Origin: Laetmonice hystrix
Taxonomy: Eukaryota
Assembly: GCA_965235115.1 (NCBI GenBank)
Contig: OZ249436.1
Coordinates: 26,290,001 to 26,354,000 of the forward strand
Length of the DNA stretch: 64,000 bases
Reading direction: 5' to 3'
The position numbers were made by a program, and so were the translations under genes. Under the pieces are notes generated by a model. The model was not told where the DNA came from and did not search any database. It saw nothing but the letters and a program-made list of their open reading frames with translations. Each line of letters starts with the position of its first letter. Position 1 is the stretch's first letter. Below are positions 35,965 through 37,270 of the stretch, piece after piece.

Positions 35965-37270
35965 TTTATTATACCTTTGCACGAAATAACGAGCGCTGAT
36001 TGGCTGAGCTACGAGTGTGATAAAAAAAATCTGTATTACCCCTGTCCACTGACCTAAAAATAGTTCGACCCAGTTTTGTACCAATAGACATTCGGCATTT
36101 GTACCATGTGACTCGTGTTTGGCCTACTTGAAATCCTGTATCACCACTGTTTACTGACCCAGATATGGCCCGACCTCATTTTTCCACCAATGAACGGAGA
36201 GTGCGTGTTTTAATACCTACGTCACAATTCATTTGTTCGACTGTTACCTGACGTCACAATCCGTTTGTTGAATTGTTACCATGACCGATGTCGTCAAAAT
36301 GACCTACGTCATAATTCATCGTCATAGTTATGTCCCGGCGTCACATAAAATAGTCGCCAATACAGCGCATTTTCACTAAGTTAGAAACAATTAATCCAAC
36401 TTAAATATATTACCATTAATTAATTTATGAAAAAGGTATAATAAATATACAGGAACGACCGAGTGTGTGATACGGGATTCTGTATCAGACGAGGCGGCAA
36501 GCGCGGAGTAATATCAGCACGAGTGCGAAGCACGAGTGCTGATGTGAATCTCCGCGCTTGCCGCCGAGTCTGATACAGAATCCCGTTATCACACACGAGT
36601 TTGTTCCTGTATTTATTATACCTTTTTCATAAATTAATTAATGGTAATATATTTAAGTTGGATTAATTGTTTCTAACTTAGTGAAAATGCGCTGTATTGG
36701 CGACTATTTTATGTGACGCCGGGACATAACTATGACGATGAATTATGACGTAGGTCATTTTGACGACATCGTTCATGGTAACAATTCAACAAACGGATTG
36801 TGACGTCAGGTAACAGTCGAACAAATGAATTGTGACGTAGGTATTAAAACACGCACTCTCCGTTCATTGGTGGAAAAATGAGGTCGGGCCATATCTGGGT
36901 CAGTAAACAGTGGTGATACAGGATTTCAAGTAGGCCAAACACGAGTCACATGGTACAAATGCCGAATGCCTATTGGTACAAAACTGGGTCGAACTATTTT
37001 TAGGTCAGTGGACAGGGGTAATACAGATTTTTTTATCACACTCGTAGCTCAGCCAATCAGCGCTCGTTATTTCGTGCAAAGGTATAATAAATACAGGAAC
37101 AAACTCGTGTGTGATAACGGGATTCTGTATCAGACTCGGCGGCAAGCGCGGAGATTCACATCAGCACTCGTGCTTCGCACTCGTGCTGATATTACTCCGC
37201 GCTTGCGCAGTATCGCCGGAAGTAGTCAGAGTGACAGAATCCCGTATCACACACTCGGTCGTTCCTGTGT
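35965..37270. mobile_element. Crypton-like element present as an inverted dimer A-H-A'-H'
   Basis: Body A (35965-~36445, bounded by TTTATTATACC/GGTATAATAAA) has a near-identical reverse complement at ~36611-37092. Hairpin H (~36446-36610) has a reverse-complement copy H' (~37093-37268). Confidence 0.75.

Follow-up and report, generated by a model that had tools for sequence, protein, structure and literature searches.

A rare inverted dimer of a hairpin-ended, most likely CryptonA-type element in a contig of Laetmonice hystrix

The window analysed here is a stretch of 64,000 nucleotides from Laetmonice hystrix (GCA_965235115.1, contig OZ249436.1, positions 26,290,001 to 26,354,000 of the forward strand). 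Its content was of animal type, with a WD40 exon and Polinton-like, LINE and Gypsy remains. The Polinton/Maverick-like remains, located at about 15970-26870, held broken DNA polymerase B and integrase frames and were placed between inverted repeats that were 75% alike, with an element carrying 370-bp TIRs nested at 19425-21877. A fold-back element of another type, at 28597-29131, comprised a 535-bp near-perfect palindrome with 95% arm identity and a short unique centre. The unit under study was located where four elements were stacked in 3 kb, counting the MITEs at 37642-37884 and 35793-35946, the former being a second fold-back MITE nested in the host TIR element. The features at the locus are given below; the ring junction is the sequence that results from joining the two ends of a monomer.

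35793..35946, unstranded: fold-back MITE flanked by CAG, separate from the host element and directly left of it
35958..38577, unstranded: host TIR element, ~1.3 kb without the insert, with TA on both sides
35965..37272, unstranded: whole insertion A-H-A'-H', with a single T common to both ends
35965..36445, plus strand: body A, outer copy, gene-less, with 14-bp inverted sites at both bounds
35965-35978 (plus) and 36432-36445 (minus): the 14-bp inverted sites of body A, sequence TTTATTATACCTTT
Close to the far end of body A: motif CTGATTGG
36432..36455, plus strand: hybrid join J2, linking the left hairpin arm to the hairpin-near end of A
36446..36611, plus strand: hairpin H, with a GCGAAGC loop at 36525-36531
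36446..37090, plus strand: inner copy, in which the junction table and the fold showed all parts of a standard monomer, namely hairpin, internal site, body and far-end site
36600..36625, minus strand: internal site J3, intact, an inverted copy of the ring junction that is 2 nt shorter
36612..37091, minus strand: body A', inverted copy of A
37078..37100, plus strand: hybrid join J4, body far end joined to the right hairpin arm
37092..37271, minus strand: hairpin H', outer copy, with the minus-strand loop at 37172-37178

The initial annotation had described an A-H-A'-H' unit with near-identical inverted bodies and a flipped second hairpin, and this layout was recovered. The inverted site bounding the body, given there as an 11-mer, extended over 14 bp. 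A classical TSD was absent, as had been noted, but one T was found on both sides of the insertion (35965 and 37272). The 10-nt core of the 14-bp site occurred four times in the 64 kb, each time inside the dimer unit. Alignment of the inverted bodies revealed 3 differences between A and A' over 483 positions, affecting one A of a run at 36022 and the position pairs 36088/36969 and 36285/36772. Hairpin H folded with z = -19.9 against 200 shuffles and contained three tandem GA/GA mismatches on the plus strand. H' was the exact reverse complement of H across 129 nt; in its outer arm, 27 nt (37207-37233) replaced 13 nt of H, and a G stood for A at 37269. The usual arm of the family was the arm of H, from which the 27-nt patch of H' differed. 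A search of the window for a source of the patch gave no more than a single match of 11-12 nt, which was taken as chance. With the patch included, the halves of the dimer differed at five places in total.

All four joins of the dimer were positioned at the core base of the sites. Within the dimer, one ring junction was opened, one internal site was intact, and the two hybrid joins were reciprocal; J2 retained the 2 additional nt that characterise ring junctions. The inner copy had an A on either side, at 36445 and 37091, and its ends and one-base overlap were identical to those of the outer unit. No gene was present inside the A-H-A'-H' unit. The single tested ORF overlapping body A had no Pfam match, and no Rfam match was obtained in 31500-39000.

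The second hairpin-ended element of the window was found upstream of the stacked insertions:

32078..32784, minus strand: monomer from a different family, agreeing in layout and end rule with the dimer's family, hairpin z = -14.8

A different monomer with a body-plus-hairpin design had been proposed at 32078-32785, and the analysis agreed with this proposal. Its body was unrelated to the body of the dimer, it folded like the inner copy of the dimer, and its family showed 1 extra nt at the core. The ends of this monomer were assigned by analogy, no empty site having been seen.

Four sequencing runs (X1-X4) contained the stretch. Their contigs originated from one sample, probably the source of the assembly, and were aligned on 36560-37640, an interval with one body only. 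The dimer interrupted the left TIR of the host element after 7 nt. With the insert left out, 36 of 42 columns agreed between this TIR and the right TIR (about 38539-38579), and eight X3 contigs crossed 37272 with an unbroken left TIR of the host element, representing the empty site. The insertion therefore splits a MITE TIR, as initially annotated. The family of the dimer was multi-copy, with 610, 575, 530 and 42 records across the four runs. Fifteen X3 contigs departed at 37272 into unlike flanks, and six X4 contigs departed at 37087-37093. These departures, together with the eight unbroken contigs, fixed the ends of the family and its one-base overlap. Among the loose ends of the family that were listed, all were of the standard type. 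A joint of the hairpin end to the body start was absent among the run contigs listed, which break at repeats. One family copy in X1-X3 carried its last 63 nt (37029-37091) tandem-repeated at the far end, plus an internal deletion, and other copies in the run contigs had various internal deletions. In run X4, coverage extended over the body and the host element, but the hairpin (36560-36670, 37115-37262) was nearly missing.

The minority base was common to A and A' at 8 of the 9 tabulated positions (40 of 62 rows), including an allele at 36965 that held 1.3%, 0.8% and 1.2% of the depth in X1, X2 and X3, respectively. Bodies A and A' are thus of one lineage. In X2, this rare allele had a depth of 47.7, of which 21.6 carried the A' base at 36969; the remaining 26.1, obtained by subtraction, did not, which would fit two single copies of the allele. 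The split also bears on the reality of the dimer. No contig bridging J2 or J4 was present among the run pieces listed, all of one sample, as a fold-back chimera or two merged alleles would allow. Such an assembly or library artefact is nevertheless highly improbable: the halves differ at five places, the X2 depth is divided between two forms, the outer joins match both the family rule and the empty site, and the geometry recurs in a second dimer described below.

Relatives were searched for with a 21-nt hairpin core, which yielded 28 metagenome loci, four loci in a prokaryote genome collection and none in viral contigs. Family-specific and hairpin patterns were likewise without a match in the viral contigs, and recombinase searches of these contigs gave no relative. 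Among the 28 metagenome matches, L006, L018, L019 and L025-L027 were rejected as unrelated, with short arms, and L021-L023 as unrelated GC-rich repeats. The contigs of L021-L023 were GC-rich and contained many dispersed REP-like palindromes with the same loop motif. From the genome collection, L029 and L031 were dropped for their short stems. L004 and L017 shared the 21-nt hairpin core without a difference and agreed with the dimer's family in layout; their 2.4-kb body had matches to DUF3504, phage integrase and QRICH1, distributed over two frames. L024 (1-1347) comprised a decayed recombinase and an end-to-end junction that was intact, in a contig with an exact terminal repeat of 127 nt; it is a ring or a tandem array.

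The remaining matches, L030 and L032, pointed to the record G001, which was 16 Mb long, contained eukaryote-like repeats and gave 34 DUF3504 matches, compared with 0 in 14 control genomes. G001 is filed as a bacterial genome and includes megabases of eukaryote-like DNA (L030, L032, L033-L042), probably host sequence that was binned with it. A palindrome of at least 90 bp was found within 1.5 kb at 8 of the top 10 G001 recombinase loci, that of L040 being without the loop, and the palindrome of L034 was found by a separate check too. The background for such palindromes was 5 of 18 window chunks, two of these being the elements under study. A looser loop pattern had 51 matches in G001 versus 2 for the reversed control. 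Altogether, the data from L004/L017, L024 and G001 showed that the hairpin layout goes with CryptonA-type recombinases. The family of the dimer is most likely a non-autonomous CryptonA-type element. This assignment was drawn from the layout and the hairpin core, which the relatives with DUF3504 have in common with the dimer's family, and not from the 14-bp site, which they do not share. The link to Cryptons suggested at the outset was supported indirectly, through the DUF3504/QRICH1/phage-integrase recombinases of the relatives. For the dimer's own family, a recombinase gene was not found, and tblastn of the window gave no match.

A Helitron2/Helentron-type rolling-circle element moved by an HUH enzyme would share the 5' T, the insertion before T and the 14-bp asymmetric inverted repeat followed by a hairpin (PMC3627910, PMC8969392; here and below, sources are compared on the parts of their text that were available). 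It merits very little credence, with the inner repeat ~180 nt from the end, not 20-30, and with DUF3504 encoded by relatives that have the same hairpin.

The anatomy of the monomers was conserved. On the strand with the GNA loop, the hairpin was followed by the internal site, the body and the far-end site. The ring junction was an inverted match to the internal site and, judged by eye, 2 nt longer in 10 of 12 families: the window dimer family, L004/L017, L024 and seven G001 families or subfamilies. The exceptions were the 32078 family, with its 1 nt at the core, and an ambiguous G001 family. Among the 2x2 mismatches on the GNA strand of 13 hairpins (score at least 60, duplicates dropped), GA/GA accounted for 11 of 19 with the search motif excluded. 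The corresponding value in G001 was 25 of 56 at a score of at least 40, where copies are not independent. TC/TC mismatches were never seen among the 13 hairpins or in the G001 set. In the predicted fold of the inner copy, the 3' end was placed on the internal site, beside the 5' end, with a pairing probability of 0.93-1.0 at 10 of the last 13 bases. Energy models showed little strand preference, the GNA strand being more stable in 11 of 15 cases. The predicted fold and the GA/GA pattern point to a folded single strand; a near-palindromic binding motif directly repeated in duplex DNA would produce this GA/GA pattern as well. The targets of these families often resembled the site core.

Dimers were rare among the relatives. 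In G001, 44 of the 51 hairpins had a same-orientation sibling, and a flipped body was present in 0 of 51. A strict mirror test detected one A-H-A'-H' with the same arm order, L102, corresponding to 1 of 51 hairpins. Its inner part was the monomer of its family, and its joins were located at or beside the internal site. The joins were imprecise, with 8 extra nt at one and a 34-nt loss at the other. The two bodies were 75.5% alike, compared with 73-83% between them and their siblings. L102 is an older dimer than that of the window. Since it represents a second dimer in 1 of 51 hairpins, the exchange giving A-H-A'-H' recurs but is rare. No dimer was detected among the 28 metagenome matches, 21 of which had at least 200 nt on both sides. 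The inverted neighbours L072/L073, L068, L093 and L096 of G001 were rejected as dimers for their other geometries, and L091 was rejected as a different TIR element. Hairpin elements were often inverted neighbours in a body-to-body or hairpin-to-hairpin geometry, for example in L092 (1932-2496), L093 (1747-7005), L068 and L096. The TIR element of L091 (1914-2472) had 78-bp ends holding GCGAAGC hairpins and was inserted in another repeat. Across families, the hairpin was upstream of the recombinase gene at 9 loci and downstream at 2 (L038, L039), showing that the body was turned at some time between families.

In the FLP inversion of the yeast 2-micron plasmid and the rolling hairpin of parvovirus/AAV, two inverted sites lie around unique segments, and A-H-A'-H' is one possible form. 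The initial annotation had suggested recombinase inversion or hairpin-primed copy-back, and the geometry and the joins fit either. A 2-micron-like amplification, in which recombinase inversion would be routine during ring replication and the dimer one of several isomers, agrees with this geometry and with the turning of the body between families. The orientation data make it improbable, since none of the 51 G001 hairpins belonged to a flipped monomer, 44 had a same-orientation sibling, and only standard ends occurred among the run loose ends listed. In contrast to the 2-micron plasmid and parvovirus/AAV, flip isomers were absent among the monomers of the relatives, no HUH Rep gene was seen, and the insertion is chromosomal.

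With a probability of about 0.5, the dimer arose when the internal site of one copy of this non-autonomous CryptonA-type element took up, by recombination, a ring formed by another copy of its lineage. We infer the ring, the enzyme of the family, the folded-strand step and the following order of events. End-to-end joining of a monomer would create the ring junction (site 1), which matches the internal site (site 2) in inverted orientation and is 2 nt longer. Most likely, a DUF3504 tyrosine recombinase provided in trans would use the folded strand as its substrate, in which site 2 brings the two ends together, and integration of the ring would involve an overlap of about one base. A second copy, either resident in the chromosome or itself a ring, may then receive at site 2 a ring from its own lineage. 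The inverted orientation of site 2 dictates A-H-A'-H' as the product, and a single exchange between the ring junction and the internal site yields the dimer exactly. Insertion of the second copy into the first had been set against the initial proposal as an event between unrelated copies. It is here the simplest reading and fits the joins equally well, but the copies are not unrelated. The patch, present in H' but not in H, counts against this explanation as unaccounted for.

A single molecule that doubled before integration, and then integrated by the normal rule, is a tentative alternative. By one route, the hairpin of a double-stranded ring would form a cruciform, whose four-way junction the recombinase would resolve by one pair of exchanges; the product would be a hairpin-capped linear duplex whose one continuous strand is A-H-A'-H'. 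By another route, the 3' end paired on site 2 would prime copy-back twice. Doubling gives exactly J2, J3, J4 and the opened site 1, and the predicted fold, which sets a primer-like 3' end on site 2, favours it. A precedent exists in integrons, where a second exchange on a folded site leads to linear products with covalently closed ends (PMC3458562), and GCGNAGC mini-hairpins are described as very stable and present at single-strand origins (PMC13037366). Against doubling, the halves would be identical at birth, so that all five differences, patch included, must be later; an allele common only to A and A' requires an unseen donor, and no free form was observed. Since self-insertion and doubling predict identical joins, sequence alone cannot separate them.

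Integration of an unrelated family member into site 2 of a resident copy, followed by gene conversion between the arms, is unlikely. Family targets often resemble the site core, and the halves of L102 (75.5%) are no closer to each other than to siblings (73-83%), as this course would allow. A and A', however, have subfamily alleles and one ~1% allele in common, yet differ only 4 nt away, at 36969. Long hairpins stall replication forks, and the same joins can be drawn for template switching by host replication on a resident monomer, with a switch at the 14-bp site and a fold-back at the hairpin but no recombinase. This course is very improbable: it needs a fold-back at the exact element end, untrimmed, and H keeps its outer-arm mismatches and the 2 extra nt.

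The dimer and its family were compared with known systems. CryptonA elements and non-autonomous derivatives (PMC3212892; Eulor5/6, PMC5753468; Glomhoppers, PMC13465315) resemble the dimer's family in the lack of a true TSD, the gene-less multi-copy derivative and the DUF3504 in relatives of the same layout. As is characteristic of CryptonA, the unit lacks a classical TSD or symmetric TIR, with one T common to its ends, and belongs to a dispersed multi-copy family with fixed ends. For animal Cryptons, no terminal repeats are reported in the available text of Kojima and Jurka 2011 (PMC3212892). The hairpin, the internal junction copy and the inverted dimers are features of the dimer's family without a counterpart in the available parts of the CryptonA literature (PMC3212892, PMC5753468, PMC13465315). 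The literature search, as far as source texts were available, retrieved no description of a hairpin, an internal copy of the junction or an inverted dimer in Cryptons; Repbase, Dfam and subscription papers were outside its scope and may describe such ends. The available part of PMC12166591 held nothing relevant to Crypton ends or dimers.

CryptonF, as represented by the Goodwin model and the active CryptonF-1_cRei (PMC9977147), is alike in recombinase integration at a short common core, in a rise in copy number and in inversions between copies. It differs in its 4-6-bp terminal repeat matching the target, compared with the one-base overlap and long hairpin with internal junction copy of the dimer's family (PMC9977147). 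Terminal direct repeats of 4-6 bp, as in the Goodwin model, were thus not found at the dimer unit, which has one base only. Integron attC cassettes (PMC3458562) offer a likeness in working only, with a strand-biased hairpin, unpaired bases at the exchange point, minimal overlap and repeated insertion at an element-borne site. They are bacterial, and use of the folded strand is proven there, whereas it is a putative step in the dimer's family (PMC3458562). DIRS elements also carry an internal segment complementary to both termini (PMC13465315), but these are retrotransposons with RT, whereas the dimer's family consists of DNA elements that have the segment at the hairpin base.

It is conceivable, though doubtful, that the mobile form of CryptonA is a folded single strand or a linear DNA with hairpin caps, in which case A-H-A'-H' units would be integrated fossils of a closed-ended intermediate. 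The 2-nt bulge, the GNA loop and the GA/GA mismatches would then form a strand-selection code of the recombinase, and the process would be a eukaryotic counterpart of integron attC recombination.

The dimer is a real, rare and recurring by-product of a non-autonomous CryptonA-type element and does not show flip-flop amplification. In the available text of a study of an active Crypton, clean excision was observed together with a rising copy number, and the mode was called complex (PMC9977147). In the dimer, both hybrid joins left by a single exchange are preserved, which marks the crossover base. Together with the conserved end layout of the relatives, the dimer provides defined substrates, namely the ring junction, the internal site and the folded strand, with which the mechanism of the DUF3504 recombinase and of Cryptons becomes testable. 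The DUF3504 recombinase family is also the source of domesticated animal genes.
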